From Actinomycetes bacterium (GTDB lineage Bacteria; Actinomycetota; Acidimicrobiia; Acidimicrobiales; Bog-793): DNA of 64,000 nucleotides. Made by a program: the position numbers and the translations under genes. The stretch is from positions 8,573 through 72,572 of the forward strand of contig JAJZBI010000021.1 in assembly GCA_021798985.1 (NCBI GenBank). Reading direction: 5' to 3'. The notes beneath the pieces were generated by a model. That model saw nothing but the letters and a program-made list of their open reading frames with translations. It did not search any database and was not told the DNA's origin. This document shows, one piece after another, positions 30,960 through 50,246 of this stretch (the first letter of the stretch is position 1; each line of letters opens with the position of its first letter).

Positions 30960-30961
30960 GC

Positions 30962-33115: not shown

Positions 33116-33188
33116 GGAGCCGCGCTCAGCACTGTGCGGGGAGGGGCGCGCCACCCGGCGCGAGCGCCCGGCGGCTCGGCCCGCTCGC

Positions 33189-34550: not shown

Positions 34551-34617
34551 CGCATCATTCTGCTCGCGCCCCGGCGACCGGCCGGACATCTCCGCGCGGA
34601 CTAGCGTGACCGGCACG

Positions 34618-35373
34618 ATGCGGGTCCTGGTGGTGTTGCCGACCTTCAATGAATCCTTGACGATCGAGCGGGTGCTCGAGTCGGTGCGCGCCTCGCTGCC
34701 GGGTGCCGATGTGCTGGTGGTCGACGACTCGAGCCCGGACGGCACCGCAAAGATCGCCGAGGTCGTCGGCGAGCGCCTCGGCAATGTCTACGTGCTCTCG
34801 CGCCCGGAAAAGGACGGCCTGGGCAACGCCTACAAGGCGGGCTTTCACTGGGGCCTCGAGCGGGGGTACGAGGCGATGTGCGAGATGGACTCGGACTTCT
34901 CCCACGACCCGGGCGACCTGCCGCGCCTCGTCGCACCGCTGATGGGTAACCAGGCGGACCTGGTCATCGGGTCGCGCTATGTCCCGGGGGGCGAGATCCC
35001 CGACTGGTCCTTTTCACGCCGCGCCATCTCGCGCATCGGCAACATCTACGCGAACGTGATGCTCGGCCTCGGCGTCCAGGATTCGACCGCCGGCTTTCGG
35101 GTCTACGCGGCGAGCCTGCTCGAACACATCGGTCTCGATCAGATCCGCGCCGACTCCTACGGCTTCCAGGTCGAGATGACCTACCGCGCCCGGCAGGCCG
35201 GCGGGCGGGTCGTCGAGGTGCCGATCCGCTTCGTCGACCGCCAAGAGGGCACGTCGAAGATGTCGAGCGCAACGGTGACCGAGGCGCTGCGCCTGGTCAC
35301 GGTGCTCGGTCTGCGTCGCCTCTTCAGCCCCGGAGAGTCCCGAGAGCTCGCCAAGGCGACCGCCCGGTCGTAA
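34618..35373 (+). CDS. ppm1: Polyprenol-monophosphomannose synthase (GT2)
   Basis: LPTFNE, VDDSSPDGT, KDGLGNAY, EMDSDFSHDP, GSRYVPGG, DSTAGFR. Confidence 0.9.
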   Translation: MRVLVVLPTFNESLTIERVLESVRASLPGADVLVVDDSSPDGTAKIAEVVGERLGNVYVLSRPEKDGLGNAYKAGFHWGLERGYEAMCEMDSDFSHDPGDLPRLVAPLMGNQADLVIGSRYVPGGEIPDWSFSRRAISRIGNIYANVMLGLGVQDSTAGFRVYAASLLEHIGLDQIRADSYGFQVEMTYRARQAGGRVVEVPIRFVDRQEGTSKMSSATVTEALRLVTVLGLRRLFSPGESRELAKATARS

Positions 35374-35457
35374 TCCTCGCCGCCGCAACACGTGGCGGCC
35401 TTGCGCGCTGAATCGCCGCACCACGACCGCTCGGGCGCGCCTCGAGTTGGTCACGGC

Positions 35458-36756
35458 TCAAGCCGGCGCCTCCGCCCTGGCCCGGCCCTCCGCCCTGGTG
35501 GTGGCCGCGCGCCTCGGCAGGCTCGCGGAGTCGAGGCGCGGGAGCACCCGCTCCTCAACGTCGCTCAAGGCGAGGCGCACCGCCCCGATGGCGACGGCGT
35601 CCTCGCCGAGCATGGAGCGCTCGATCTGCGGCGCTACGAGGCAGAGGCGGCGGACGCTGGCACGCAGCGCCTCAAACATGGCGTCTCCCGCGCCGGCGAG
35701 GCGCCCGCCGATGACGACCATGTCGGGATCGAGCACCAACAGCAGCGGGGCGAGCCCGCGCGCAAAGCGGGCGATGACGGCGTCGACGACTCGACGCGCC
35801 GCCCGGTCGCCCGCCTCGCTCGCGCGGAACACCTCGAGCGCGTCGAGCTCGGGGCCAGCCGCGGCGATCCGTGAGGTGCGCCCCCGTGGCCGGCTGGCCT
35901 CGGCGCGGGCCATGGCGACGATGGCGCGCGATCCGACGGCTCGCTCGAAGGGGCCGAGGCCGTCGTCGTCGGCCACGGCGTCCCCGCCGGCCGTCTCGAG
36001 CACGTTGAGGTAGCCCACCTCGCCGGCAGCACCAGCACTGCCGCGATGCAGCCGCCCGTCGATGACGATCCCCGCTCCGACGCGTTCGCCCCAGAGCACG
36101 AACACGACATCCCGGGTCGTCGCCGCCGCGCCGCGCCAACATTCGGCGAGCACCGCGAGGTTCACGTCGTTCTCGACGAGCACGGGGGCGCGGAACGAGC
36201 TGCGGAGTTCCTTTGCCAAATTGATCGACGCCCAGCCGGGCAGGCTCGGCGCCTGGACGATGGTGCGCTCGTCGAGGTTGACGATCCCCGGGCTGCCGAC
36301 GGCGACCGACATCACATGGTTTCGGGGGATGCCGCTGCGGGTAAGGGCGTCGTGCACCGTGGCGCGGATCACGCCGAGCAGTTGCGTTCGGTCGTGCGCG
36401 CCAGTGGTGCTTTGGCGTGCGCTGGCGACGGGCACGCCGTCGAGGTCTGCGACCACCACCTCGGTGGTATGCGCGCCGACGTCGATCCCGACGACGAACC
36501 CCGCTTCGGCGCGAAAGCGCACGACGCGAGCAGGTCGCCCGACGCGTTGGCGACCGGGCGGGCCGTCGTCGCAGAACGACACCCACCCGGCCTCACACAG
36601 CTCGTCGAGTGCGGCAACGACCGTCGGTCGCGACAGGCCGGTGAGCTCGGCGATCTCGCCGAGACGCAGGAGATCCGCGCGCCGGACCGCAGCGAGGACG
36701 TGCGCCTGGTTCATTTGGCGCAACGCCGCGGGGCTGCCTGGTCCGGCACCTCGCAT
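35458..36756 (-). CDS. ROK-family transcriptional regulator (HTH + ROK)
   Basis: LRQMNQAHVL, TGLSRPTV, ENDVNLA, GAAGEVG. Confidence 0.92.
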   Translation of the reverse strand: MRGAGPGSPAALRQMNQAHVLAAVRRADLLRLGEIAELTGLSRPTVVAALDELCEAGWVSFCDDGPPGRQRVGRPARVVRFRAEAGFVVGIDVGAHTTEVVVADLDGVPVASARQSTTGAHDRTQLLGVIRATVHDALTRSGIPRNHVMSVAVGSPGIVNLDERTIVQAPSLPGWASINLAKELRSSFRAPVLVENDVNLAVLAECWRGAAATTRDVVFVLWGERVGAGIVIDGRLHRGSAGAAGEVGYLNVLETAGGDAVADDDGLGPFERAVGSRAIVAMARAEASRPRGRTSRIAAAGPELDALEVFRASEAGDRAARRVVDAVIARFARGLAPLLLVLDPDMVVIGGRLAGAGDAMFEALRASVRRLCLVAPQIERSMLGEDAVAIGAVRLALSDVEERVLPRLDSASLPRRAATTRAEGRARAEAPA

Positions 36757-36764
36757 CGAATCTC

Positions 36765-36811
36765 TTGACGCCACAGCCACAAGCTAACTATATTGAAAAC
36801 TCATTCCATAT
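36765..36811 (+). promoter_or_regulatory. Sigma-A-type promoter with overlapping AT-rich imperfect palindrome (candidate ROK operator)
   Basis: TTGACG(36765)-N18-TATATT(36789); atattgaaaactcattccatat (36790-36811). Confidence 0.55.
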
Positions 36812-36934
36812 GGCGATACTTGTCGCGCTCTACGACATCGGGGGATGGGGCGGACAGCTTGAGCTGAGCTCGGCGGAGCTGAGCGGGGTGCTGAGACCGA
36901 GGGCCGCTGGCGGTCGTCGGCAAAGGGGGGCGTC

Positions 36935-37948
36935 TTGGCGCGCGAGGAACGACTGAGGATCGGTGTCGTCGGGGGCGGCGTCATGGCCCGGACCCACCTG
37001 GCGTCGCTGCTGTCGATCCCGACGGCCGAGGTCGTTGGCCTGGCAGCACCCGAGGTGAGCCCGGAGGTGGCCGGCCTCTGCCAAAGCGCAGGCATCCCCG
37101 TCGGTGCGGACGTGCGCGGGCTGATTGGCAGCGATGGGCTCGATGCCCTTGTCATCGCCGCACCGACCGATGCGCACGTCGCGTTGGTGCAACTCGTCGC
37201 GGCGAGCGGACGACACGTGTTCTGCGAGAAGCCGCTCGCGCTGAAGATCCGGGACGCGCGCTCGGCCGTCGATGCCTGTGCGGCCGCCGGTGTGCGGCTC
37301 GCGGTGGGCCATGTCGTGCGCTACTTCCCGGCCTATGCCAAGCTGCGCGATCTGGTGGCCGCGGGGGAGATCGGGCCGCCGGCGATGGCGAAGTGCCGGC
37401 GCATGTCCGGCCCGCCGGGCGAGGCCCGGGAGTGGTACGCGGACAGCTCGCGTTCGGGCGGCGTGCTCACCGACATGGGCGTGCACGACTTCGACTGGTT
37501 GTTGTGGACCCTTGGGCCGGTCACCCGGGTCAGCGCGTCGGTCGTCGACCGCGGCGCCGGACAGGTGGCGATGGTGCTGTTCGCTCACGAGAGCGGTGCA
37601 ATCTCTGCCGTCGAGCTGTCCTGGATGGACCCAACGGGCTTTTGGACCGCGGTGGAGGTGTCCGGCCCAGGCGGCCTGCTCAGTCACGACAGCCGTACCT
37701 CCGCGACCTTCCGCTTGGAGCGCGCCCCGAACGTGGCGCCAGCGCCCCCATCGGTCGAGGTCCCGCTCGGCGCGGCGCTGAGCGATCCCTACCGCGACGA
37801 GATGGTCGACGCGCTCGCGTTCTTCGCCGGGGGTGCGGTGCCGCGAAGCAGCCCGCAAGACGCCGTGGCAGCCGTGGCGCTCGCCGAGGCGGCGCGCCGT
37901 GCAGCCGAGATGCAGGCAACCATCGAGCTGAAGGACGTTGGCTCGTGA
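36935..37948 (+). CDS. Gfo/Idh/MocA-family oxidoreductase
   Basis: VGGGVMA, PTDAH, CEKPLA, DMGVHDFD. Confidence 0.92.
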   Translation: MAREERLRIGVVGGGVMARTHLASLLSIPTAEVVGLAAPEVSPEVAGLCQSAGIPVGADVRGLIGSDGLDALVIAAPTDAHVALVQLVAASGRHVFCEKPLALKIRDARSAVDACAAAGVRLAVGHVVRYFPAYAKLRDLVAAGEIGPPAMAKCRRMSGPPGEAREWYADSSRSGGVLTDMGVHDFDWLLWTLGPVTRVSASVVDRGAGQVAMVLFAHESGAISAVELSWMDPTGFWTAVEVSGPGGLLSHDSRTSATFRLERAPNVAPAPPSVEVPLGAALSDPYRDEMVDALAFFAGGAVPRSSPQDAVAAVALAEAARRAAEMQATIELKDVGS

Positions 37949-38925
37949 CGGCGCGCCTGCCAGTTGCGATGGTCGGTGCCGGCCACATCCATTCCCCCGG
38001 CTACCTCCGCTGGCTCGCGCAGAGCCCCGACGTTGACCTCGTCGGCGTGTACGACCAAGATCCACGGCGCGCCGCCGAGCTTGCCGAGGCGAGCGGCACG
38101 AAGGTGCTCGGCTCGCTCGAGGAAGCCACGTCCCTTGCTCGGGCGGCGGTGATTGGCCCCGAGCCCACGCGCCAGCTCGCGCTCGCCGAGGCGGTGGCGC
38201 AAAGTGGCGGCGCGCTCTTGATCGAAAAGCCGCTCGGGGTGAACGCGGCGGAGTCCAAGGCGCTCGTCGCGCTCGCCGAGAAGGTCCCGATCAGCGTGAC
38301 CTTGCCCGTCCGCTACCACCCTGGCGCCGTGCAGCTCGCTCGCGCGGTGCACGAGCAGCAACTCGGCGAGGTCGTGGCGATCTGGGCCACGAACCGGAAC
38401 CGCTTTCCAGGAGGCTGGTTCGGTGACCCGGCGCTCGCGGGCGGCGGGTGCCTGCTCGACCATGTGGTCCATGTCGCCGACCTGATCGGTTGGATCTGGC
38501 AGACGACGTGGTCCTCGGTGCGCGCCGAGGCCGGCACGCTGCACCATGTCGACCTTGCCGTCGAGGACAGTGCGATCGTCCTCGCGCAGACCACCAACGA
38601 CATGATGGTCAGCGTCGATCCCTCGATGTCGCGACCTGACGACATGGCCGGCGCCCTCGACTTGACGATGCGGGTATGGGGGGAGCGCGGCGTCGCGACG
38701 ATCGACATCTTCGCGGCGCGCGTCGACGCCTTCGACACCTCAGGGCGCCACCGTCAGCACCTCGTCGGTGCCGACATGGACGGGGCGATGCTCAGCGACT
38801 GGGTGCGCTCGGTGCGCGGCGCGGGACCTCCGCCGGTGCCGTGCGCCGATGCCTTCCGGGCGAGCGCGCTGGCCTTCGCCGCCCAGCAGGCAGTCGCCAC
38901 GCACCAGACGGTGCGGCTGAGCTGA
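37945..38925 (+). CDS. Gfo/Idh/MocA-family oxidoreductase
   Basis: GAGHIHS, IEKPLG, GGCLLDHVVHVAD. Confidence 0.9.
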   Translation: MTARLPVAMVGAGHIHSPGYLRWLAQSPDVDLVGVYDQDPRRAAELAEASGTKVLGSLEEATSLARAAVIGPEPTRQLALAEAVAQSGGALLIEKPLGVNAAESKALVALAEKVPISVTLPVRYHPGAVQLARAVHEQQLGEVVAIWATNRNRFPGGWFGDPALAGGGCLLDHVVHVADLIGWIWQTTWSSVRAEAGTLHHVDLAVEDSAIVLAQTTNDMMVSVDPSMSRPDDMAGALDLTMRVWGERGVATIDIFAARVDAFDTSGRHRQHLVGADMDGAMLSDWVRSVRGAGPPPVPCADAFRASALAFAAQQAVATHQTVRLS

Positions 38926-38964
38926 ATCTCTGCAACACCCACACGACAGAGGGGAGAACTGCAG

Positions 38965-40296
38965 GTGATGAAGCACCACAAGAGCCAAAGGGCGCGCCGG
39001 TCCCTTTCCCGGCGGGGGCTGCTCGCCGCGGGGCTGGTGGCGGGACCGCTCGCCATGATGGGGATCTCCACACCGGCGCATGCCGCGTCGTCGGTGACCA
39101 ACATCACGGCATGGGAGGGTGACACCGGCACCGCCGCGACGGCCCTCAAGGCGCAGGTCGCCGGGTACAACAAGACCTACGCGCATAGCTGCCACGTGAC
39201 GACGGACTTCATCGCCGCCACGGGGCACACCTTCACCCCCAAGCTGCTCACCGCGTTGTCGTCGGGGTCGGGGCCCAACTTGGTCCTCAGCTACTCCGAG
39301 CCCCAGGACATGGCCGAGGTGGCGGCCACCGGTCACGTCGTCACCTTGAACAAGTACATGGCCAAGGAGGGGCGCCCGGGATCGGTCTTCTATCCGGCCA
39401 TGTTGAAGGCGTCGACGTTTGGCAACAAGGTGTACTCGTTCCCCACCGACGGCGGGGACTACGGCGTGATCTACAACAAGAAGATCTTCGCCAAAGCGGG
39501 GATCACCGCGACGCCGACGACCTGGGCACAGCTCGCCGCCGACGCGGCCAAGATCACCAAGGCCGAAAAGGGGGTCTACGGCTTCTATGTGCCCTTTGGC
39601 GTCAACGAGTGGACGGTGTGGACCTTTGAGTCCATGTTGTGGTCAGAGGGTGGTCACTTCTTGAACGCCAAGAACAACAAGGCGCTCTTCGCCAGTCCCG
39701 CGGGCGTCGCCGGGCTCAATGTCTGGGTGAACCTGTTGAAGGACCACTTGGCCTATCCGACCTCGCTCGCCAACAGCAGCCAGAATGCCGGCTACCCCGG
39801 CTTCCAGGACGGCAAGGTCGCCATGTACATCGACGGCTCCTATGACCTCGGGCTCGACGACAAGGCGCTCGGCACGAAGAACGTCGGCGTCTTCCAGTTC
39901 CCCAAGGTCAAGACGTACGCGATGAACACCGGCACGAACCAGTCCTTCATGACGACGGGCACCCCCGCACAGCAGACTTGTGAGTGGGACTACTTGAAGT
40001 ACATGACCTCGCCCACGGTCCAGGCGAAGTGGGATGTCGCGACGGGCTTCCTGCCGACCGTGCGTGCCGTGGCCAACACGCCGACCTACCGGGCTTTTGT
40101 GGCCAAGGACCCGCGGCTCAACGTGTTCGTCCACGAGCTCAAGTACGCGCACACGCGTCCATCGATCCAGAACTACGCGCAGATCTCGGCCGAGCTCGGC
40201 AAGCAGATCGAATCGGCGCTCATGCAACAAGAGTCAGCCAAGGCGGCGCTCAGCGCAGCCCAGGCCCAGGCGAACCAGATCCTCGCCCAGGGGTAG
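38965..40296 (+). CDS. Carbohydrate ABC transporter substrate-binding protein with Tat-type signal
   Basis: SRRGLL...AHA signal; GPNL, YSFP, IYNKKIF. Confidence 0.92.
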   Translation: MMKHHKSQRARRSLSRRGLLAAGLVAGPLAMMGISTPAHAASSVTNITAWEGDTGTAATALKAQVAGYNKTYAHSCHVTTDFIAATGHTFTPKLLTALSSGSGPNLVLSYSEPQDMAEVAATGHVVTLNKYMAKEGRPGSVFYPAMLKASTFGNKVYSFPTDGGDYGVIYNKKIFAKAGITATPTTWAQLAADAAKITKAEKGVYGFYVPFGVNEWTVWTFESMLWSEGGHFLNAKNNKALFASPAGVAGLNVWVNLLKDHLAYPTSLANSSQNAGYPGFQDGKVAMYIDGSYDLGLDDKALGTKNVGVFQFPKVKTYAMNTGTNQSFMTTGTPAQQTCEWDYLKYMTSPTVQAKWDVATGFLPTVRAVANTPTYRAFVAKDPRLNVFVHELKYAHTRPSIQNYAQISAELGKQIESALMQQESAKAALSAAQAQANQILAQG

Positions 40297-40468
40297 CGGC
40301 GCCGTGCCGGTGTCGATGACCCACTCGAGGGATTGATCGCGGTGATCGGGGCGCGTGTCGGCGGGAAACCGACACCGGCGCGCGCCCCGGCGCCGCGGCC
40401 GCCGGCACTGCGTCGCGCGGCGCTGCATCGCGCGGCGCTGGGTCCGGCCAGCATGGCCGGGGTGCGTC

Positions 40469-41455
40469 ATGGCTGAGGCGACCGAGGTGCTTGTGGCACG
40501 CCGTGGCCGCAGCCAGCGCGCCATACGACGGCGTCAGCGGGCGATGGAAGACAAGCGCAGCGGCGGTGGCGTGAGCCGGCGGGAGGAGATCATCGCCGGC
40601 TATGCGTTTGTGGCGCCCACGGCGGTCCTGCTGAGCTTGTTCTACTTCGTGCCGCTGATCGAGACCTTCTACTACAGCTTCACCAAGTGGGATCCGGCCT
40701 CAGTCACCCCGGCGCACTACGTGGGGCTGGCGAACTACCGCCAGCTCGGCGGCAGCGTGGGCTTCCTGCCCGCCGTGCTGCACACGCTCGTGTACCTGGC
40801 GTTCACCGTCCCGATCTCGGTCGCCGTGGGCCTTGGGCTCGCGATGCTGCTGAATCGGCCCTTCCGCGGCTCGGGCATCTACCGCACGCTGGTCTTCACG
40901 CCCTACATCGCGCCGATCGTCGGCAGCGCCCTCGTCTTCTCCTACATCCTCTCGCCGCTCGGCGGGATCGCCAACGACCTGCTCAGCGCGTTCGGCATCC
41001 ATCCGATCAACTTCCTCGCCGAGAACCCCTGGGCGATGATCTGGCTGATCATTTTCTCGATCTGGCAGGTCGCCGGGTTCAACATGGTGATCTACCTTGC
41101 CGCCCTGGCCTCGGTGCCCGAGGTCTACTACGAGGCGGCCGAGATGGACGGCGCCCGCTTCTTCGCGCGCTTTCGCCACATCACCTGGCCGCTCATCTGG
41201 CCGTCCACGCTCTTTTTGCTGGTGATCGGCGTAGTGAACTCGATCCAGGTCTTCACCCAGGTCTACGCACTCACCGGTGGTGGCCCGATCGACAGCACGT
41301 GGACGGTGATCTACTGGATCTACCAGGAGGACTTCGTGTACTTCAACGGGGGCCTCGCCACCGCGGGCTCGGTCGTGTTGTTCCTCGTCGGAATGATCCT
41401 CACCTTGTTGCAGCTTCGCTTCCTCGGCCGGCGGCGCGTGGAGATGATGAGCTGA
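40469..41455 (+). CDS. Carbohydrate ABC transporter permease
   Basis: YAFVAP, YYEAAEMDGA, NSIQVF. Confidence 0.93.
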   Translation: MAEATEVLVARRGRSQRAIRRRQRAMEDKRSGGGVSRREEIIAGYAFVAPTAVLLSLFYFVPLIETFYYSFTKWDPASVTPAHYVGLANYRQLGGSVGFLPAVLHTLVYLAFTVPISVAVGLGLAMLLNRPFRGSGIYRTLVFTPYIAPIVGSALVFSYILSPLGGIANDLLSAFGIHPINFLAENPWAMIWLIIFSIWQVAGFNMVIYLAALASVPEVYYEAAEMDGARFFARFRHITWPLIWPSTLFLLVIGVVNSIQVFTQVYALTGGGPIDSTWTVIYWIYQEDFVYFNGGLATAGSVVLFLVGMILTLLQLRFLGRRRVEMMS

Positions 41456-42354
41456 TGGCCACCGCGCTCGAGCTGCGAAGCGGCCGGCTTCGGCGCCCTC
41501 CCGCCGCGCCGGTGCGCCCGCGCCGAGGCCGGCGCGAGCGCAGGGTCGTGGTCGTCGCCCGCCACGTGGTGTTGATCATCGCGACGGCGCTGTTCTTCGG
41601 TCCGTTTGTGTGGATGATCCTCACGAGCTTGAAGAGCTCGTCCTCCGCGCTTGTCTACCCTCCGACGCTGCTCCCGCACCACTGGCACTTCGGCAACTAC
41701 CTCGACGTCTTTCGGGCGGCGCCGTTCGGGACGTTCTATCTGAACAGCATCATCCAGGCGGTCGCGAGCACCATCGGTCAGGTGGTCACGAGCGCGCTCG
41801 CCGGCTACGCCTTCGCGCGGCTGCGCTTCCCGGGCCGCCAGCTGATCTTCTTCATCTTGCTCGGGGCGCTGCTCGTGCCCTTCCAGGTGGTCTTCGTGCC
41901 ACTCGTGCACCTGCTGGCGGCGCTGCACTGGCTGAACAGCTACGAGGGCCTCATCATCCCCAACATCCCCTCGATCTTCGGCGCGTTCTTGTTCCGCCAG
42001 TTCTTCATGAGCTTCCCGGCCGAGCTCGAGGATGCGGCCGCGGTGGACGGGGCGGGGATCTTGCGGCGCTTCATCAGCGTCGTCGCGCCGCTGTCGCGCG
42101 GCACGGCAGGCGCCTTTGCGATCCTGGCCTTCATCTACAACTGGAACAACTTCTTCTACCAGTTCATCATCGTCAACACGAACCGCTATATGACGGTCCA
42201 GCTCGGCCTCGTGCTCTTCCAGTCCCAGCAGACGGCGAGCGAGTTCAACCTGTTGATGGCCGCCTCCACGATCGCGGTCATCCCCGTCCTCATCGTCTTC
42301 CTCGTCTTCCAGCGACAGATCGTCCGCGGCATCATGCTCGGCGGGCTGAAGTAG
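41455..42354 (+). CDS. Carbohydrate ABC transporter permease
   Basis: GYAFARLRFPG, ELEDAAAVDG, IMLGGLK. Confidence 0.93.
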   Translation: MATALELRSGRLRRPPAAPVRPRRGRRERRVVVVARHVVLIIATALFFGPFVWMILTSLKSSSSALVYPPTLLPHHWHFGNYLDVFRAAPFGTFYLNSIIQAVASTIGQVVTSALAGYAFARLRFPGRQLIFFILLGALLVPFQVVFVPLVHLLAALHWLNSYEGLIIPNIPSIFGAFLFRQFFMSFPAELEDAAAVDGAGILRRFISVVAPLSRGTAGAFAILAFIYNWNNFFYQFIIVNTNRYMTVQLGLVLFQSQQTASEFNLLMAASTIAVIPVLIVFLVFQRQIVRGIMLGGLK

Positions 42355-42358
42355 CGCG

Positions 42359-43858
42359 GTGCGGTCGCGCGACGGCGCAGAGCCGGCGGACGGCGCGATC
42401 TCCCCGTTTCGGATCGCGATGGGTGGGATCGCCATCGAGGCGAGCGCCTTCTCGCCGCACCGCAGCACGCTGGCGGACTTCACCCAGCGGGGCGGTCCCG
42501 AGCTCATCGCCCGCTACCCCTTCATCGCCGACGCACCAACGTGGTCGCGCGGGGTCGAGTGGGTGCCGCTGCATCATGCCCGCGCGCTCCCCGGCGGTCC
42601 GGTGCTCGCCGAGGCGTACGCGGCGCTCAAGTCCGAGATCCTCGAGCGCGCGGTGGCGGCCGGGCCACTCGATGGCGTGTTGTTGGACATCCACGGGGCG
42701 ATGACCGTGATCGGGTGCGAGGACGCCGAGGCCGATCTCGCCGAGGCGCTGCGCGCCGCGCTCGGCGAGGGCGTCATGATCTCGGCATCGATGGACCTCC
42801 ACGGCAACGTCTCGCGCCGCCTCGCCGAAGTGGTCGACTTGCTCACCTGCTACCGGACGGCCCCGCACGTGGATGAGGAGGAGACGCGCGAGCGCGCGGC
42901 GCGCAACCTTGTCGCGCAGCTGCGCCAGGGGGAACGGGCGCGCAAGGCCTGGGTGAGCGTCCCGCTCCTCCTCCCCGGAGAGCGCACGAGCACCCGCGTC
43001 GAGCCCGCGAAGGGCCTCTACGCGATGGTTCGCGAGGTCGCCGGCCATGACGGCATCCTCGATGCCTCGTTCTTTGTCGGCTACGCCTGGGGTGACGAGG
43101 CGCGCTGTCGTGCCGCCGTCGTCGTGATGGGCAAGGACGTCGAGACGGTCGGCGCCAAGGCGGCACGACTGGCCCAGGCGGCCTGGGCAGCGCGCCACGA
43201 CTTTGGGTTCGCGGCCTGGGCGGGAAGCCTGGACGCGTGCCTGGAGCGGGCGATGGTGTCCGCCTCGCGCCCGTTTTTCATCAGCGACTCGGGGGACAAC
43301 CCCACCGCGGGCGGTGCCGGCGACGTCACCTTCAGCCTCGCGCGCCTGCTCGCGACGCCCGAGCTGGTGCGCGGGACGCGGCGGGTCGTCTACGCGAGCA
43401 TGCTTGACCCCGAGGCGGTCGCCGCCGCCGCGGCGGCCGGGGTGGGCGCGGCGGTGCGCGTCGGCCTCGGGGCCAAGCTCCTGCCCACGCCCGCGCCGCC
43501 CGTGGCGCTCGAGGGGACGGTCACCTGCCTGCGGCCCAACGATCCGGTCGGGGGCGACTTGGCGGTGATCGGCGTCGGGGGCATCGAGGTGATCGTGACC
43601 TCCCGGCGAAAGCCGTACCACAAGGTCGCGGACTTCAGCGAGCTCGGGATCGACCCCCGCGAGCGGGACATCGTCGTCGTCAAGATCGGCTACCTCGAGC
43701 CGGAGCTCCACGCGATCGCTGCGGACTGGTGCCTGGCACTCACCCCCGGTGGGGTCGACCAGGATCTCGCCCGCCTCGGCCACCGCCACCTCGCCCGCCC
43801 GCTCTTCCCGCTCGAAGGGGCGGACTTCGACCCCGACCTGACGCCGGTGTGCTGGTGA
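42359..43858 (+). CDS. M81-family (MlrC-like) metallo-amidohydrolase
   Basis: IEASAFS, DIHGAM, DLHGN, YRTAPHVD, DSGDNPTAG, VVKIGY. Confidence 0.9.
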   Translation: MRSRDGAEPADGAISPFRIAMGGIAIEASAFSPHRSTLADFTQRGGPELIARYPFIADAPTWSRGVEWVPLHHARALPGGPVLAEAYAALKSEILERAVAAGPLDGVLLDIHGAMTVIGCEDAEADLAEALRAALGEGVMISASMDLHGNVSRRLAEVVDLLTCYRTAPHVDEEETRERAARNLVAQLRQGERARKAWVSVPLLLPGERTSTRVEPAKGLYAMVREVAGHDGILDASFFVGYAWGDEARCRAAVVVMGKDVETVGAKAARLAQAAWAARHDFGFAAWAGSLDACLERAMVSASRPFFISDSGDNPTAGGAGDVTFSLARLLATPELVRGTRRVVYASMLDPEAVAAAAAAGVGAAVRVGLGAKLLPTPAPPVALEGTVTCLRPNDPVGGDLAVIGVGGIEVIVTSRRKPYHKVADFSELGIDPRERDIVVVKIGYLEPELHAIAADWCLALTPGGVDQDLARLGHRHLARPLFPLEGADFDPDLTPVCW

Positions 43859-44661
43859 GCCCGGCGGACGCGTCCCCGCTCGTCTTTGAGGTCTGTGCGG
43901 GCTCGCTGGCGGCCCTCGAGGCCGCCCTGGCGGCGGGGGCAGCACGCGTCGAGCTGTGCGCCGGGCTTTCGCTCGGCGGCCTGACGCCGAGCCTCGGCGC
44001 CATCCGGTCCGCCGTCGCCCGCTGCGCCCGACGGGCCAGGCTGCACGTCCTCATCCGCCCGCGGCCGGGCGACTACGTCTACTCGCCCGGCGAGGTCGAG
44101 GTGATGGAGGCCGACGTGGTGCTCGCCAAGGCTGCCGGGGCCGACGGCGTGGTGATCGGCGCGCTCGATCAACGCGCCAGGGTCGATGTCGCCACGTGCC
44201 GGCGCCTCGTCGCGCTCGCCCGTCCGTTGAGCGTGACCTTCCACCGCGCCTTCGATGCGACGTCCGATCCACTGGCGAGCCTTGCCGAGGTCGCGGCGCT
44301 CGGGGTCGACCGCCTCCTCAGCTCCGGTGGTGCCGCCGATGCGCTGGCCGGCGCCGACGTGCTGGCCGAGCTCGTGCGGCGTGCCGGCGACGAGCTCGTG
44401 GTGATGGCGGGGGGCGGCATCACCGAGGCGAACGTGGCCGACGTCGTCCGGCGCGCCAAGGTGCGCGAGCTCCACTTCTCTGGCCGTCCGGCGTCCTCGG
44501 GCGGGGCGCCGAGCATGCCCGATCGCCTGGCGGCGCGCCTCGAGGCCATCATGGCGAGCGCCCGACGCGGCGACGACGCCGAGCGCGGGGGGCGAGTTGG
44601 TGCGCCGCTGGTCGGGCCGGCCGGCGGCCAGGACGCAAAGGGGCCGACATGGGCCAGCTGA
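43855..44661 (+). CDS. cutC: CutC-family TIM barrel protein
   Basis: EVC, RVELC, GGLTPS, LIRPRPGDY, TFHRAFD, LSSGG, ELHFS. Confidence 0.9.
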   Translation: MSPADASPLVFEVCAGSLAALEAALAAGAARVELCAGLSLGGLTPSLGAIRSAVARCARRARLHVLIRPRPGDYVYSPGEVEVMEADVVLAKAAGADGVVIGALDQRARVDVATCRRLVALARPLSVTFHRAFDATSDPLASLAEVAALGVDRLLSSGGAADALAGADVLAELVRRAGDELVVMAGGGITEANVADVVRRAKVRELHFSGRPASSGGAPSMPDRLAARLEAIMASARRGDDAERGGRVGAPLVGPAGGQDAKGPTWAS

Positions 44662-45878
44662 GCACGCCCGGACGGGCGACCTCGTCCCTGTATTGCTTTG
44701 GTACGGACCTGTTGGACGAGGGCATCGACGTCGTGCTCGAGCGCGCCAGCACGGCCGGGCTCGATGGGATCACGATGGCGGCGAAGTACCACGCCGTCAG
44801 CGACCTGTATCCCCATAACCCGCGGCGCCGACAGGCGAGCGTGGCGCCGGGCTGCTACTTCGTCCCCGAGCCACGGCGCTATGGCGAGATCGTGCCCGCG
44901 CCCCACGAGCTGTTGGACGGGCGCGACCTCCTCGCCGAGCTGTGCGCGCTCGCTCCCCGTCACGGTCTTGGCGTCTCGGCGTGGGCGGTGGTGCTGCACG
45001 ACGACGACGCGGCGCCGGGCACCCCCGGGCTTGGCCGCAACTGCTTTGGCGAGGAGGTGGCGGGCACCCTGTGCCCCTCGAGTGACGCGGGGCGCGACCT
45101 CGTGGTCGGCCTCGTCACCGACCTGTGCCGCTACGGCCTCGTGGCGATCCGGCTGGAGTCCGTGCACTTCCACGGCTTCGGGCATGGTCATCACCACGAG
45201 CGCCTCCTCGAGGACTACGGCGAGCTCGCCCGCTTCGTCCTCGGCCTGTGCTTTTGTGCGGCCTGCTGTGGGCGCGCCGATGCCGCCGGGCTCGACGGTG
45301 ACGAGCTCGCGACGCGCGCCCGTGCCTACGTCGAAGCGGTGCCGTCGGGATCCGTCGCGCCGCAACCCTTCTCCAACGACGCCCTGGCCGCAGCGTGCGG
45401 GGAGGCCGCCATCGCGTTCTTGGCGCTGCGCAGCGCGGTCGTCGCCGGCCTCGTCGCCGAGGTGGTGCCGATCGCGTCGGGCAGACAGATCACCCTCAGC
45501 GTCATCGACCCGTCGATCGCCACGGCGTCTTACGCGACCGGCGAGCTCGGACCCCCGAGTCCGCTCGGGGGGCTCACGCTCGGCATCGATGCGGTCGGCC
45601 TCGCCGCGAGTGGCGCTCGGGTCGAGGTCACGGGATATCTGCGCGACCCGAACGCGCTCGACCAAGCGCTCTCGGCCGGTGCGCTCGGGGCGCGAGATGG
45701 CCAGGCCGATCCACGCCTGGCGCTGATCTTGCGGCCCGGCGCGCCCGACGGGGCCGACGCGGGGAGCCTTGCCGCCAAGGTGGCAGTCGCCCGCCACCAC
45801 GCCGTCGAGGTCAACTTCTACAACTACGGCCTGTACCGTCTCGATGCACTCGAGCGCATCGCGTGGGCCCTAGCGTGA
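44649..45878 (+). CDS. Uncharacterised glycoside-hydrolase-like TIM barrel with His/Cys clusters
   Basis: AAKYH, PHNP, TLCPSS, IRLES, HGHHHE, CFCAAC; in the operon between cutC and nagB. Confidence 0.65.
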   Translation: MGQLSTPGRATSSLYCFGTDLLDEGIDVVLERASTAGLDGITMAAKYHAVSDLYPHNPRRRQASVAPGCYFVPEPRRYGEIVPAPHELLDGRDLLAELCALAPRHGLGVSAWAVVLHDDDAAPGTPGLGRNCFGEEVAGTLCPSSDAGRDLVVGLVTDLCRYGLVAIRLESVHFHGFGHGHHHERLLEDYGELARFVLGLCFCAACCGRADAAGLDGDELATRARAYVEAVPSGSVAPQPFSNDALAAACGEAAIAFLALRSAVVAGLVAEVVPIASGRQITLSVIDPSIATASYATGELGPPSPLGGLTLGIDAVGLAASGARVEVTGYLRDPNALDQALSAGALGARDGQADPRLALILRPGAPDGADAGSLAAKVAVARHHAVEVNFYNYGLYRLDALERIAWALA

Positions 45879-45959
45879 CGGCGCAGCGGACCGGCCGGCA
45901 TGGCAGCGTGGCCGAAGCGATCGATGGGACATGATGCGGCGACGCAAGGAAGGAAGGCG

Positions 45960-46727
45960 ATGAGCGCGGCAGCGACCAGGCGGAGCTATGGGAGCTTGGA
46001 GGTGGTCATCCACCCCGACCTCGACGACCTCGCCGATGCGGCGTGCGCCGAGGCCGTGGCAGCCATCGCGGCTGACTTCGCCCGCCGGGGCGAGGCGGCG
46101 ATCGTGCTCGCGACGGGCAACTCCCAGCTCGGCTTCTTGGAGCGACTCTGTGCCGCCGATCTGGACTGGTCGCGCATCTCGATCTTGCACCTCGATGAGT
46201 ACGTCGGCATCGACGCGGACCATCCCGCCAGCTTTCGCCGCTATCTGCGCGAGCACGTCGTCGACAAGGTGGCCCCGAAGGCCTTCTACGGCCTTGGCGG
46301 GGACGCCGCGGACCTCTCCGCCGAGTGCGCCCGCTACCGCGCCCTGCTTAAGGCGTGCGATCCGCAGCTGTGTGTGATGGGGGTGGGGGAGAACGGCCAC
46401 CTCGCCTTCAACGACCCGCCGGCCGACTTTTCGACCACTGCGGTCGTGCACGAGGTTGAGCTCGATCGCGCCTGTCGCCTGCAGCAGGTGGGCGAGGGGC
46501 ATTTCCCCGACTTCGACTCAGTGCCGACACGGGCGCTCTCGCTCACCGTGCCCGCCATGTTGTCGATGCCGCACCTCGTCGCCATCGCGCCCGAGCAGCG
46601 CAAGGCCCAGGTGATCGCCACGGCCCTCGACGGGCCGATCTCGCCGGACTGCCCGGCCTCGGCGCTGCGCCAGGCCGCCGGCGCCGTGCTGCATCTCGAC
46701 GAGGCATCCGCCAGCCGGCTCGCCTGA
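45960..46727 (+). CDS. nagB: Glucosamine-6-phosphate deaminase/isomerase (NagB-like)
   Basis: LATGNSQ, LDEYVG, GVGENGHLAFNDP. Confidence 0.82.
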   Translation: MSAAATRRSYGSLEVVIHPDLDDLADAACAEAVAAIAADFARRGEAAIVLATGNSQLGFLERLCAADLDWSRISILHLDEYVGIDADHPASFRRYLREHVVDKVAPKAFYGLGGDAADLSAECARYRALLKACDPQLCVMGVGENGHLAFNDPPADFSTTAVVHEVELDRACRLQQVGEGHFPDFDSVPTRALSLTVPAMLSMPHLVAIAPEQRKAQVIATALDGPISPDCPASALRQAAGAVLHLDEASASRLA

Positions 46728-46867
46728 GCACGCGTTTGGGAATCTCGCGGCGCGAGCAAACCCTCAACAGGCCTGCCGTGGCCAGCGTCGCGACCCGGTG
46801 CCCGCGCCCCGGGGCGCTCCGCCCGGCGCCGGTGGCGGCGCCGGCGCCCCAAGGAGGGAGCCGACTC

Positions 46868-48121
46868 GTGAAGCCGGAAGAGATCGCCAAGCTCGTCCAC
46901 GTCGGGCGTCCCGACGCCCCCTATGGCGCCCGGCGGCTCGCCCGCTGCTACGACATCGCCGATCTCGCCCGCGTGGCGCGCCGTCGCCTGCCCTCGGGCG
47001 CCGCCGGCTACCTCGACGGTGGCGGGGAGGGGGAGTGGTCGCTTCGGCGCAACCGGCTCGCCTTCGGTGAGCTCGAGCTGATCCCCCGGGCGCTGCGCGA
47101 CGTGAGCGAGGTCGACACGACGACGACGGTGCTCGGCTGCAACCTGCCCGCCCCGATCATCTGCTCGCCCGTTGGCGGACCGCGGATGTTCCACCATGAG
47201 GGGGAGCTGGCGGTCGCCCGGGCCGTTGCGCACGCGAAGATCGCCTACGGCGTCTCGACGCTTGCGACCCAGCCGCTCGAGGCGGTCGCCGAGGCGGCCG
47301 GGGACGCGCCGGTCTGGTTCCAGCTCTATTTGTGGGGCGATCGCTCGGACGCGAGAGCGCTCGTGCGGCGCGCCAAGCGTGCGGGCTATCGCGCCTTGCT
47401 GTTGAGCATCGACTGCGCGGTGCGCAGCGAGCGCGACCGGGAGCTGCACCGCGGGATCGCGTTGCCCACCCCCCAGCTCGACCTGAAGACGCTGCTCGAC
47501 GGCGCCATCCATCCCGATTGGTCCTGGCACTTCCTCACCAGCCCGGCGCTCGGATTCCCGAACCTGTCGATGAGCGGGCCGAGTTCGCGCGACAAGCTCG
47601 AGCAGATGTTCGACGGCACGCTCACCTGGGAGGACCTCGAGTGGATCCGAGAGGAGTGGGACGGCCCGATCGCGTTGAAGGGGGTGCTGCGTGTCGATGA
47701 GGCCCGTGAGGCGGTCGCGCGCGGCCTCGACGCCGTGATCGTCTCCAACCACGGCGGGCGCCAGCTGGACCGCGTGCCGGCCACCTTGGAGGTCCTCCCC
47801 GAGATCGTCGAGGCCGTCGGGGATGACATCGAGGTGCTCTTTGACTCCGGGGTGCGCCGGGGCAGCGACATCGTCACCGCGCTGTGCCTCGGCGCGAAGG
47901 CGGTGCTCGTGGGCCGCGCCCACCTCTACGGCCTCGCCGCGGCGGGCGAGGCGGGGGTGCGCCACGCCATCGACATCTTGGAGCGCGAGCTCAAGATGGC
48001 GATGGCGCTGTGCGGGGCGCGCGCCTTGGGCGACCTCGACCGCTCGCTGCTGCGCCCCGCGGCTCCGCCCGATCTCGACCCCACCCACGCCAGGGCCGTG
48101 CAGGCGGCGATCTCCAGTTAG
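46868..48121 (+). CDS. lldD: FMN-dependent alpha-hydroxy-acid dehydrogenase (L-lactate dehydrogenase-like)
   Basis: WFQLY, LKG, SNHGGRQLD, DSGVRRG, GRAHLYGL. Confidence 0.85.
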   Translation: MKPEEIAKLVHVGRPDAPYGARRLARCYDIADLARVARRRLPSGAAGYLDGGGEGEWSLRRNRLAFGELELIPRALRDVSEVDTTTTVLGCNLPAPIICSPVGGPRMFHHEGELAVARAVAHAKIAYGVSTLATQPLEAVAEAAGDAPVWFQLYLWGDRSDARALVRRAKRAGYRALLLSIDCAVRSERDRELHRGIALPTPQLDLKTLLDGAIHPDWSWHFLTSPALGFPNLSMSGPSSRDKLEQMFDGTLTWEDLEWIREEWDGPIALKGVLRVDEAREAVARGLDAVIVSNHGGRQLDRVPATLEVLPEIVEAVGDDIEVLFDSGVRRGSDIVTALCLGAKAVLVGRAHLYGLAAAGEAGVRHAIDILERELKMAMALCGARALGDLDRSLLRPAAPPDLDPTHARAVQAAISS

Positions 48122-48906
48122 GGCGAGCGATCGGTGCCGGCGATGTCGTCGGCGAGCCCCGGCCGGCCCGCGAGCAAGCCACCGTCAACCGCCAAGACGG
48201 CGCCGGTGATCCATCTCGCCTCGTCGGAGCACAAAAAGGCGGCCGCTGCGGCGATGTCCTCGGGGGTCCCGACGCGCCCGAGCGGATAGATCCCCGAGAG
48301 CTGCTCGAACAGGTCGGGCTGGCGCGCAAGGCGAGCGTCCCAGGCGGGCGTGGCGACGGTGCCGGGCGCGATCAGGTTGCAGCGGATGCCGGTGGGGCCA
48401 TAGCGCACGGCGATCGCTTGGGTGAGGCTGACGAGCCCGCCCTTGGCGGCCGAATAGGCCTCATTGCCGAGGAACTGGAAGGCGTTCACCGAGCCGATGT
48501 TGCAGATCACGCCCGATCGCCGCGGGGCCATCGTGGCGAGTGCCGCCTTGGCGCAGCGGAACGGGCCGCCCAAGGTCACCTCGAGGTCGCGGGCCCATTG
48601 CTCCTCGCTGAGCTCGGCGAGCGTGGCGTCGGTGCACGAGGCGGCGTTGTTGACGAGCACATCCAGCGGACCGAGGCGCCGCTCGAGGGCCGCGAGGCCC
48701 GCCGCCACGCTGTTGGGGTCGGCGACATCGAGGCGGATCCCGACGCAGCGGCTCGGGAGGCCCGCGGCCAGCGCCTCGGCGGCCTCGAGGTCGAGGTCGC
48801 CGATCGCGACCGCGGCGCCCTCACTCGACAGCCGGGCCGCGATCGCGGCACCGATCCCCGAGGCCCCGCCCGTCACGAGCACCACCTTTCGCGAAAAGCG
48901 GCTCAT
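48118..48906 (-). CDS. Short-chain dehydrogenase/reductase
   Basis: TGGASGIG, NNA, YSAAK. Confidence 0.93.
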   Translation of the reverse strand: MSRFSRKVVLVTGGASGIGAAIAARLSSEGAAVAIGDLDLEAAEALAAGLPSRCVGIRLDVADPNSVAAGLAALERRLGPLDVLVNNAASCTDATLAELSEEQWARDLEVTLGGPFRCAKAALATMAPRRSGVICNIGSVNAFQFLGNEAYSAAKGGLVSLTQAIAVRYGPTGIRCNLIAPGTVATPAWDARLARQPDLFEQLSGIYPLGRVGTPEDIAAAAAFLCSDEARWITGAVLAVDGGLLAGRPGLADDIAGTDRSP

Positions 48907-50246
48907 CGACCGCCTCGCTCATAGCGCGGCGGGGTGCCGATCGCCAGGCGCGCGAAGTCCTCGGCCGCCTGCAGCGCCTCCGCCCAGGGGCGGCGCAGCT
49001 CGCTTGGGGGTCGGGCAACCAGGCGGCGCTGGGCGGCGGTTGCCTCGATCCACGGCGGCAGCGGCTCGGGGGGGAGCGGCTCCAAGACGACACCGCTCGC
49101 GATCGTCGCCACGTTGACAAGCAGCTGATCGACCCGGCGCGGCACGAGGTAGGTGTCGAAGAGGTCGACTTCGACCCGCTCGAGGCGAAAGATCGCGACA
49201 TCCGCGCGGCGACCCAGCGCGAGCGCCCCCCACTGATCGGCCCGCTTCGCAACGCGCGCCGGGGTTAGCGTCATCGCGGCGATGACTTGCTCGAGCGGCA
49301 TCCCGAGCGCGAGCAGCTTGCTCGCGCACGTCGGCAGGTCGAAGGCGGGACCGAGCACCGAGCGCAGGTGGAGGTCGGAGGAGATGACGTCGGGCCACTC
49401 GCCCCGTGCCGCCATCTGTTCGGCGACGGCGTAGCTGAACGCCCCGCTGCCGTGGCCGAGGTCCAACAGCACGCCCCGTTCGCGCGCCGATGCTGCCGCA
49501 GGACGGAGCGCCCCGTGCTCGTCCAGCAGCGCCATCGACTGGCCGGTGCAGGCATGGGTGACGAGGTCGCCCGGTGAGAGCAACCCGAGCACCTCGTCGA
49601 TCTCGGGCGGCCCGCCGCCGATGTGGACCATCACCGGAACGCCAGCGGCTTGCGCAACCGAGCGGGCCTGGCGCAGCGGCTCGAGCCCAGCGGGTCCGAC
49701 GGCGTGGTGGTCGAGGCGGCTCTTCACCCCGACGAGCACGCCGGGGTGCGCGGCCAGCACCTCGGCGCACAGCGCCGCGTCGCAGTCGGACGCGGATCTC
49801 GCCTCGCCGGTCTCGGTGACGAGCCCCCGGCTCGAGATGTTGAGGAAGGCGGCGAGGCCAAGCGGGCTGGTGGCGATCTGGTCGAGGAGGGCACCGGCGT
49901 TGTAGGCACCGGCCGAGCCGGCATCGACGAAGCAGGTGACCCCGCTCCGCCACGCGACTGGCTCGGGGCGCAGGCTCCAAAAGCCCCCGCCGGCATAGAC
50001 GTGGGTATGCAGGTCGACGAGCCCGGGGGTCACGAGACAGCCCCGCGCGTCGATCACCGCCGCCCCGTTGGGCTCGATCCGAGGAGCGATGGCGGCGATG
50101 CGGCCGTCGGCGATGGCGACGTCGTATGGCCCACGCCGTCCGCTCGCCGGATCGATCACCTCCCCGCCGCTGACCACGAGGTCGAAGCCCGGGGGCCCCT
50201 CGCTGTTCGGGGCGGGCGAGACCAGGGACTTTGGGGGAGCGCTCAA
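48903..50246 (-). CDS. Amidohydrolase/deacetylase-family metallohydrolase (EF_0837/PRK09237-like)
   Basis: PGLVDLHTH, GVTCFVDAGSAG, GVK, MVHIG, GDLVTH, DLGHG, ISSD. Confidence 0.85.
   Translation of the reverse strand: MSAPPKSLVSPAPNSEGPPGFDLVVSGGEVIDPASGRRGPYDVAIADGRIAAIAPRIEPNGAAVIDARGCLVTPGLVDLHTHVYAGGGFWSLRPEPVAWRSGVTCFVDAGSAGAYNAGALLDQIATSPLGLAAFLNISSRGLVTETGEARSASDCDAALCAEVLAAHPGVLVGVKSRLDHHAVGPAGLEPLRQARSVAQAAGVPVMVHIGGGPPEIDEVLGLLSPGDLVTHACTGQSMALLDEHGALRPAAASARERGVLLDLGHGSGAFSYAVAEQMAARGEWPDVISSDLHLRSVLGPAFDLPTCASKLLALGMPLEQVIAAMTLTPARVAKRADQWGALALGRRADVAIFRLERVEVDLFDTYLVPRRVDQLLVNVATIASGVVLEPLPPEPLPPWIEATAAQRRLVARPPSELRRPWAEALQAAEDFARLAIGTPPRYERGGR

Follow-up and report, generated by a model that had tools for sequence, protein, structure and literature searches.

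The described system closest to the locus presented here is the Ong route for N-acetylglucosaminic acid from oxidised chitin, in which OngB and OngC act and which in Pseudoalteromonas prydzensis comprises OngA, OngIT, OngB, OngC, OngD, and KdgK (Jiang et al. 2022, PMC9537276). OngA, a glycoside hydrolase (GH) of family GH20, splits GlcNAc-GlcNAc1A (GlcNAc, N-acetylglucosamine), OngB, a member of the D-aminoacylase family whose structure has been published (PMC12017989), deacetylates GlcNAc1A, and RidA (OngD) and KdgK finish the pathway, which a survey found only in Gammaproteobacteria and one betaproteobacterium (PMC9537276). Other points of comparison are the Streptomyces csnR-K system, an operon for chitosan oligosaccharides (the ROK repressor CsnR, CsnEFG, the GH4 enzyme CsnH, and the ROK kinase CsnK; PMC5635096, bioRxiv 10.1101/2023.09.20.558697) and the canonical NagA/NagB systems (E. 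coli nag and the Streptomyces DasR regulon). We analysed a stretch of 64,000 nucleotides (the window) from an uncultured acidimicrobial member of the Actinomycetota, corresponding to positions 8573-72572 of contig C26 (JAJZBI010000021.1) in a metagenome-assembled genome (MAG) of 3.76 Mb, ~97% complete and with 70% G+C. Within it, a ROK-family regulator, an M81 (MlrC-like) amidohydrolase, a CutC-family protein, an unannotated barrel protein, and a NagB-like deaminase lie together with sugar import and redox genes. We propose, with a probability of roughly 40%, that this locus is a mosaic catabolic island of three modules (A, B, and C) acting on an imported amino-sugar compound that is amide-linked or oxidised, while other parts of the genome supply NagA, MurQ, kinases, and Eda.

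Because spurious open reading frames (ORFs) are abundant at 70% G+C, genes were called by codon-position G+C and then confirmed with Pfam and NCBIfam. In the resulting layout, a divergent ROK regulator precedes ten genes on the plus strand, namely two Gfo/Idh/MocA oxidoreductases, a CUT1 solute-binding protein (SBP) with two permeases, M81, CutC, the barrel, the NagB-like protein, and an FMN (flavin mononucleotide) enzyme. Directly downstream of this operon, and convergent to it, lies a translationally coupled trio of genes:

35458-36780, minus strand: ROK-family transcriptional regulator (Pfam ROK 144.5 bits; MarR_2/HTH_IclR at residues 23-78)
36765-36811, unstranded: promoter and candidate ROK operator (TTGACG-18-TATATT at 36765-36794; palindrome at 36790-36811)
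36935-37948, plus strand: Gfo/Idh/MocA oxidoreductase 1 (Gfo1), IolG-like (Pfam; TIGR04380 161 bits against a cut-off of 355)
37945-38925, plus strand: Gfo/Idh/MocA oxidoreductase 2 (Gfo2), translationally coupled to Gfo1 via a GTGA overlap
38965-40296, plus strand: CUT1-type sugar SBP (SBP_bac_1, 116.6 bits)
40355-41455 (start uncertain) and 41455-42354, plus strand: two ATP-binding cassette (ABC) permeases (BPD_transp_1; UgpA/UgpE-like, under the cut-off)
42359-43858, plus strand: M81 (MlrC-like) zinc amidohydrolase, cytoplasmic (DUF1485 324.7 bits, MlrC_C 190.8 bits)
43855-44661, plus strand: CutC-family TIM-barrel protein (CutC, 217 bits), translationally coupled to M81 by a GTGA overlap
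44649-45878, plus strand: unannotated glycoside-hydrolase-like (beta/alpha)8 barrel of 409 amino acids (AlphaFold2 fold)
45960-46727, plus strand: NagB-family deaminase/isomerase of a divergent subfamily (Glucosamine_iso; the ORF is open from 45900 and the ribosome-binding site favours ATG 45960)
46868-48121, plus strand: FMN-dependent (S)-2-hydroxyacid dehydrogenase/oxidase (FMN_dh, 437.6 bits; ORF open from 46736)
48118-48906, minus strand: short-chain dehydrogenase/reductase (SDR), last gene of the convergent unit (adh_short_C2, 209 bits)
48903-50246, minus strand: COG3964/PRK09237 'amidohydrolase/deacetylase family metallohydrolase' (NF006689, 381.9 bits against a cut-off of 371)
50243-51499, minus strand: fold-type-III pyridoxal-phosphate (PLP) enzyme, D-serine-dehydratase-like (DSD-like) (D-ser_dehydrat and Ala_racemase_N; ORF open to 51697)

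In the proposed account, module A (the ROK regulator, M81, and CutC) would act through M81, which would cut the amide in a sugar-amino-acid or sugar-acyl conjugate and thereby free the sugar. Module B (the barrel, the COG3964 deacetylase, the DSD-like enzyme, and the SDR) would work like OngA, OngB, and OngC: the glycosidic bond to a 2-acetamido-aldonic acid (or a similar N-acyl-D-beta-hydroxy-amino acid) would be cleaved first, and deacetylation followed by dehydration and deamination would then yield a 2-keto-3-deoxy acid. Since eda is present elsewhere in the genome, this acid would enter the Entner-Doudoroff branch. Module C, the NagB-family deaminase, would convert an amino-sugar 6-phosphate made by NagA, MurQ, and kinases whose genes lie elsewhere. 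The Gfo pair would probably oxidise or epimerise a sugar hydroxyl, and the FMN enzyme would oxidise a 2-hydroxy acid released along the way.

All genes named in an earlier note on this DNA, made by a model from the sequence, were recovered by Pfam and NCBIfam where it had placed them, and its view of a sugar-type, ROK-associated catabolic locus with a NagB-family protein is supported. Its suggestion of an undescribed pathway is also reasonable, and a literature search returned no described pathway for several of these enzymes. The boundaries it gave, 35458-48121, are too short: the functional unit runs from 35458 to ~51500 and includes the convergent trio. Its description of mostly overlapping stops and starts holds for four of the nine junctions of the operon (GTGA at 37945, TGATG at 41455, GTGA at 43855, and 13 nt at 44649), whereas at the other five the genes are separated by 4 to ~140 nt, according to which start codon is chosen. 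An Rfam scan of the locus returned no element, and we detected no terminator above background, nor any convincing internal one, within the ten-gene array. The stops of the FMN gene and of the SDR gene on the opposite strand overlap by 4 nt (window positions 48118-48121); as there is no terminator between the two convergent units, transcripts from both strands should collide or overlap.

The order from the ROK gene through the NagB-like gene into the FMN gene is kept in two sister MAG contigs and is, therefore, no chance product. Amino-acid identity to the sister contigs ranges from 70 to 95% overall, with the transporter (SBP and permeases) at 91-95% and M81, CutC, and the barrel at 70-75% (window against sister contig L028); the M81/CutC/barrel segment may either have evolved faster or have been replaced by recombination. 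A sister contig has a gap of ~380 nt between cutC and the barrel gene, compared with the 13-nt overlap in the window. Three parts of the locus, those around M81, the barrel, and the NagB-like gene, are each conserved separately in other genomes.

The barrel protein has no Pfam match, no sequence match in the PDB, and no signal peptide, and its family is rare, with 45 homologues among 5.8 billion proteins. Residues H48, H56, E170, C201, Y330, Y391, and Y393 are among those invariant in the family, in which HGHHHE and CFCxxC motifs are nearly invariant as well. The TIM barrel that the earlier note had described is borne out by a high-scoring AlphaFold2 model (mean pLDDT 93.6, pTM 0.93), whose best Foldseek matches are glycoside-hydrolase barrels: the C-terminal domain of PgaB (GH153), beta-amylases, GH35/GH42 galactosidases, GH20 hexosaminidases, and Cwp19. 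A weak match to GHL10 (PF02638) was found in 13 of 34 family members (best E-value 9e-6) and none in the window protein; the fold is common to both groups. The mechanically called ORF at 44698-45726 was discarded as an off-frame artefact, its product being rich in Arg, Ser, and Pro and codon-position G+C favouring the frame of 44649-45878, the one that the earlier note had used.

Genes of the convergent trio recur beside barrel homologues (35-47% identical) in unrelated metagenomes. In L029 (barrel 47% identical), the barrel gene is convergent with genes for RidA, a DSD-like enzyme (59% identical to that of the window), and an amidohydrolase (54%); L001 (barrel 45%) has an orthologue of the amidohydrolase (56%) together with an Ldh_2 enzyme and an HpcH-type aldolase; and L005 (barrel 46%) has an orthologue of the SDR (50%) and a CUT1 importer. 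The locus best suited as a model for the role of the barrel family is probably L030:609-12826 (JGI metagenome 3300076002; barrel 35%), a single-strand operon that starts with a family-5 SBP ABC importer, continues with two D-2-hydroxyacid dehydrogenases (2-Hacid_dh), the barrel, an NAD-epimerase-like gene, a DSD-like gene, and a D-aminoacylase, and is followed by a LysR regulator. This D-aminoacylase scores 603 bits against the A. faecalis D-aminoacylase 1m7j and 440 bits against PpOngB (9kb1). As the barrel gene lies inside the operon of the window and its conserved partners in the convergent trio, the two strands are tied together.

The COG3964 enzyme of the trio has PDB matches to 2ogj (214 bits), 8wzy, and 2ics, and its orthologues (54-56% identical) stand beside barrel homologues in L001 and L029 and beside an orthologue of the NagB-like gene in L020. 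Thus, the deacetylase that co-varies with the barrel and with the NagB-like gene is the COG3964 enzyme and not M81. COG3964 enzymes favour acetylated 2-hydroxy or 2-amino acids of D configuration, and EF_0837-type COG3964 genes sit in D-glucosaminate-like phosphotransferase system (PTS) operons of Firmicutes. Atu3266 reportedly hydrolyses acetyl-(R)-mandelate. The DSD-like gene probably starts at ATG 51499; its product matches 3gwq, a 'D-serine deaminase', at 258 bits and D-threonine aldolases more weakly. The SDR reaches 209.5 bits on a 'glucose 1-dehydrogenase' subfamily model with a cut-off of 215.

Like the Ong route, the locus pairs a metal deacetylase with a fold-type-III PLP enzyme similar to D-serine deaminases, an enzyme of glycoside-hydrolase type, and an adjoining importer. 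The DSD-like enzyme belongs to the same broad family as OngC (D-ser_dehydrat and Ala_racemase_N), a likeness at family level only, and related loci supply further Ong-like elements, namely RidA in L029 and a true D-aminoacylase of the OngB family beside the barrel in L030. The absence of a phosphorylation step or kinase from the locus is a further likeness. However, two of the three enzymes belong to other families in the window, where a COG3964 enzyme stands in place of the D-aminoacylase and a GHL10-like barrel in place of GH20; import is by an ABC system instead of SSS and TonB, the regulator is ROK instead of RpiR, and the host is an actinobacterium.

The M81 enzyme, which would be central to module A, probably starts at ATG 42419 and has 479 amino acids. 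Its D146, H148, and H170 align with D167, H169, and H191 of the microcystinase MlrC, zinc ligands verified by mutagenesis (PMC4810221), and the two enzymes have their two-domain architecture and their Asp-x-His...His zinc site in common (PDB 7ylq, 3iuu). They differ in sequence, with ~30% identity over the aligned core, and in context, which in the window is of sugar type and not of peptide-toxin type. M81 scores 139.8 bits on the MlrC model NF041767, under the cut-off of 999, and Pfam and NCBIfam detected no mlrA, mlrB, or mlrD in the locus. A literature search returned no function for M81 beyond microcystin, none for CutC in sugar metabolism, and none linking DUF1485, M81, or CutC with amino sugars.

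M81 is encoded in single copy in the genome and has homologues in the thousands, the closest named ones (56-63% identical) being from Streptosporangium, Actinoallomurus, Amycolatopsis, Kribbella, and Nonomuraea. Counting the window and seven independent orthologue loci (53-63% identity), ROK genes adjoin M81 in six of eight cases and CutC genes in four. Three of these loci (L012, L018, and L027) combine a ROK regulator, M81, an Opp-type ABC importer with a family-5 SBP, and a ROK kinase without helix-turn-helix (HTH); L018 and L027 carry the importer arm divergently and L012 in the same orientation, and CutC joins M81 in L012 and L027. A ROK gene followed by M81 is found in L017, CUT1 permeases followed by ROK and M81 in L025, a LacI regulator followed by M81 in L019, and M81 followed by CutC in L026, which adds to the M81-CutC pairs of L012 and L027. 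These repeated links of M81 orthologues with ROK regulators, ROK kinases, and importers fit a putative amide hydrolase acting on a sugar conjugate.

A search of genome contigs with M81 returned two related loci, and its orthologues were detected in 3 of 400 other genomes of the phylum; sixteen other M81-bearing genomes of the class, among 301 sampled, carry different paralogues. CutC was found in only one of these 301 genomes, that of the window itself. The two counts (1/301 for CutC and 3/400 for M81) suggest that the module was acquired horizontally.

The NagB-like protein, the sole component of module C, is encoded by the only NagB-family gene of the genome. Its TIGR00502 score, 113.7 bits for the protein and 115 bits when the genome was searched, falls short of half the equivalog cut-off (236.9), and on the subfamily model NF001684 it reaches 131 bits against a cut-off of 326. 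It belongs to a populous subfamily of mainly metagenomic sequences, 50-68% identical, with named members from Acidimicrobiales, Chloroflexota, and Actinoallomurus. In E. coli numbering (with a NagB reference sequence checked only by its length and by the expected residues at 72, 143, 148, 172, and 208), Asp72, His143, and Lys208 are kept in all 60 subfamily members; Glu148 is always replaced by Asp and N140-D141 by E-N, and Arg172 is replaced by His in 48 of the 60 and by an aromatic residue in the others. We read the protein as a deaminase of amino-sugar 6-phosphates with changed specificity or regulation. As its Pfam family includes 6-phosphogluconolactonases too, a lactonase function was considered, but it was set aside as the main reading because the Asp/His motif of NagB is conserved and NagA-like genes are neighbours. 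In L020 to L024, a NagA-like gene (203-242 bits on the nagA model) stands immediately before the orthologue, which in L020 and L022 is convergent with a 56% identical copy of the COG3964 amidohydrolase of the window. Its position after NagA-like genes in other phyla suggests that the subfamily probably still uses a 6-phosphate, here from enzymes encoded elsewhere.

Such enzymes are present in this genome. The earlier note had remarked that NagA and a kinase were missing, which is true of the operon; the search for nagA in the rest of the genome, which it had proposed, found it together with murQ on contig C20 (274.8 bits for nagA against a cut-off of 225.65, and 324 bits for murQ), and eight ROK genes and eda were also found elsewhere in the genome. 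The C20 locus (C20:4497-10759) contains a CUT1 SBP, two permeases, a GntR/HutC-type regulator, and nagA, with murQ convergent to them, and is the canonical amino-sugar and cell-wall-sugar locus of the genome. It lacks a nagB and so probably relies on the NagB-like gene of the window. Compared with canonical NagA/NagB systems, the window shares the catalytic Asp and His and the phosphate-binding Lys of NagB, as well as a sugar-responsive repressor and an adjoining sugar importer; it differs in that the operon contains no NagA, kinase, or PTS and in the E148D and R172H replacements of its NagB-like protein.

The ROK regulator that controls this operon in our account consists of an N-terminal winged HTH and a ROK sugar-binding domain; it scores far under the cut-offs of the NagC and Mlc models and is 85-87% identical in the sister contigs. 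In the divergent region of 154 bp, a promoter scan found TTGACG-18-TATATT, which matches the consensus at 10 of 12 positions, and an imperfect palindrome, ATATTGAA-N6-TTCCATAT, overlaps its -10 box. The sister contig L003, in which the leader downstream has diverged, keeps this 22-mer at every position (100%). It is the sole AT-rich 20-mer between 35.3 and 52 kb, save one inside the SBP coding sequence at 39469, and has no second copy genome-wide at up to three half-site mismatches (<=3). It would, thus, look like a local putative ROK operator. The leader of the operon (36812-36934) carries reiterated GAGCTGAGC-type repeats that are partly deleted in L003, in contrast with the perfectly conserved operator upstream.

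A ROK repressor beside a CUT1 importer, cytoplasmic enzymes for amino-sugar oligomers, and a palindromic operator at the promoter (putative in the window) are all shared with the csnR-K system. However, the window has no GH4 enzyme or kinase, its operator sequence differs, and M81, CutC, the barrel, the Gfo pair, and the FMN enzyme are without counterpart there. We set this analogy aside since CsnH is a GH4 and not a Gfo/Idh/MocA enzyme.

The import and redox genes complete the operon. The SBP finds its best PDB match in 7bvt, a 'hypothetical sugar ABC transporter binding protein' (121 bits), and is matched only weakly by NgcE and by binders of chitin oligosaccharides; there is no ATPase gene for the importer within the locus. 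Gfo1 has only generic PDB matches. Gfo1 and Gfo2 seem to act as a pair, as a paralogous tandem (Gfo1-like 40% and Gfo2-like 38% identical) recurs on contig C42, and they perhaps oxidise and then re-reduce a sugar hydroxyl. The C42 region (28961-39797) starts with a divergent ROK gene followed by a Gfo-family gene, a ribose-type permease, a binding protein, an ATPase, and a xylose-isomerase-like TIM barrel, and ends with the Gfo1-like and Gfo2-like genes, pdxS, and pdxT.

The FMN enzyme, with PDB matches to L-lactate oxidase, glycolate/hydroxyacid oxidase, and mandelate dehydrogenase and a score of 295.9 bits on the LldD model NF033901 (cut-off 550), is a generic (S)-2-hydroxyacid oxidase or dehydrogenase. 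Its gene also lies downstream of the NagB-like gene in the sister contig L028, and a 57% identical paralogue is encoded at C26:~6410, ~2 kb upstream of the window start. Three families of 2-hydroxyacid dehydrogenases accompany the barrel family, FMN_dh in the window, 2-Hacid_dh in L030, and Ldh_2 in L001, suggesting that a 2-hydroxy acid truly arises as an intermediate or as a by-product. The opposite stereospecificities of these enzymes would be reconciled if that acid were achiral, as glycolate is, but this is speculation.

Several observations weigh against the three-module account. The deacetylase of the window is not an OngB-type D-aminoacylase (28 bits to 3gip and no match to 9kb1), and Pfam and NCBIfam found no GH20, RidA, KdgK, or SSS transporter in the locus. 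There is no AA10 lytic polysaccharide monooxygenase (LPMO; family LPMO_10) in the genome either, so that the host would be, at best, a scavenger of oxidised chitin products. The NagB-like protein seems to require a phosphate ester, yet the operon encodes no kinase. The ROK regulator is only 26-34% identical to those beside other M81 genes, and the ROK-M81 association, therefore, holds at family level only. Six metagenome loci encode a CutC protein 45-55% identical to that of the window with no M81 nearby, and CutC genes often lie among housekeeping genes. Barrel homologues in L005:8293-10743 and L002:7003-8958 are found near an OTCase-fold carbamoyltransferase-like gene and an SDR, with another amidohydrolase and xanthine-dehydrogenase genes also present in L005, a context that misfits an Ong-like function. 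The genome-wide search found no copy of the operator before the convergent trio, so the operator provides no co-regulation link between modules A and C and the trio. Finally, what is proposed for the Gfo pair, CutC, and the FMN enzyme is guesswork. The analysis shows the gene content, how each module is conserved, that catalytic residues are intact, and one operator-like site; from these we infer the substrate and all of the reaction steps.

On a rival account, the locus would contain no single pathway but two or three unrelated units side by side with different substrates: one made of the importer, Gfo, M81, and CutC genes, another of the barrel and the trio, and a third of the NagB-like and FMN genes. 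We consider this unlikely, though worth keeping in view. In its favour, each module does occur without the others elsewhere, the trio has no operator copy, CutC often stands alone, and M81, CutC, and the barrel are less alike between sister genomes (70-75%) than the transporter is (91-95%). Nevertheless, the overlaps of the M81-CutC and CutC-barrel junctions imply that a single message serves for the translation of all three, the whole order is kept in the sister MAGs, and the barrel is placed in the operon with its partners in the convergent trio.

A bolder reading is similarly improbable. The barrel would found a new glycoside-hydrolase family, cytoplasmic and splitting aldonic-acid-terminated HexNAc (N-acetylhexosamine) disaccharides, for example the chitobionic acid of LPMO-oxidised chitin; with the COG3964 deacetylase and the D-serine-dehydratase-like deaminase, it would make up the first Gram-positive, ABC-fed form of the oxidative-chitin (GlcNAc1A) pathway, with enzymes non-orthologous to the published ones; and M81-CutC would be a widespread undescribed sugar-amide hydrolase unit under ROK control.

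The earlier note had favoured another model, in which M81 removes the acyl group from an N-acylated or peptide-linked amino sugar. We read it with a non-phosphorylated N-acyl amino sugar (GlcNAc, ManNAc, GalNAc, an N-glycolyl sugar, or the like) as the substrate and the free amino sugar proceeding to NagB. This now seems rather improbable. With nagA above its cut-off on C20, a NagA substitute is unnecessary, and it is not favoured by the presence of a COG3964 deacetylase 0.8 kb downstream, a family member that tracks with the NagB-like gene in other genomes. In other phyla the NagB subfamily pairs with NagA-like genes and not with M81, the sole characterised M81 enzyme is a peptidase, and the operon offers no kinase to make the 6-phosphate implied by the conserved K208. 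What stands of the proposal is M81 as an amidohydrolase in a sugar locus, consistent with its intact zinc site and its links to ROK genes, kinases, and importers, while its role as a required replacement of NagA is not supported. Some observations do suit the model: the operon itself has no nagA, the ROK sugar kinases beside M81 orthologues would phosphorylate the freed sugar, and the FMN enzyme matches glycolate/hydroxyacid oxidases in the PDB at ~260 bits. The evidence also allows a refinement in which the substrate is an N-glycolyl amino sugar and its deacylation releases glycolate for the FMN enzyme, an achiral acid that would suit the three 2-hydroxyacid dehydrogenase families near the barrel. 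N-glycolyl amino sugars occur in some actinomycete cell walls.

We give equally little credit to the catabolism of glyco-amino acids or glycopeptides (GlcNAc-Asn, chitobiosyl-Asn, or muropeptide-like compounds), in which M81, partnered by CutC, would cleave the sugar-amide or a flanking peptide bond, the barrel would remove HexNAc, and NagB would finish the sugar. The Opp/Dpp-type importers with family-5 SBPs in L012, L018, and L027, which are of peptide type under sugar-type ROK control, argue for it, as do the GH20 and PgaB matches of the barrel. However, the SBP of the window is of the CUT1 sugar type, the locus contains no aspartase, asparaginase, or peptidase partners, the D-amino-acid-type partners conserved beside the barrel would be left unexplained, and the literature search yielded no link of M81 or CutC to glycopeptides.

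Far less probable still is the salvage of mycothiol or a GlcN-inositol (GlcN, glucosamine) conjugate, with M81 as the amidase, the barrel as a GlcN-inositol glycosidase, the Gfo enzymes as inositol dehydrogenases, and NagB acting on glucosamine, since, despite an IolG-like Gfo1 (161 bits), an MshC-like gene (413 bits, under the cut-off of 485) and a full-score iolD elsewhere in the genome, and a candidate enzyme in the locus for every bond type of such a molecule, it is purely a fit of parts, the M81 module occurs elsewhere without Gfo enzymes and the barrel, the D-serine-dehydratase and deacetylase partners of the barrel are left unexplained, and we know of no precedent for mycothiol import.

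If the Ong-like reading of module B is true, the use of oxidised-chitin products would extend from Gamma- and Betaproteobacteria to actinobacteria, with different enzymes, and a physiological substrate would be established for COG3964 amidohydrolases. If M81 and CutC are a sugar-amide hydrolase pair, a common 'peptidase' annotation in the sugar loci of actinomycetes would need revision. M81 outside microcystin degradation, CutC, and a rare glycoside-hydrolase-like barrel are, in any case, found in reproducible neighbourhoods that point to amino-sugar chemistry, and the operon offers a compact set of testable enzyme-substrate pairs.

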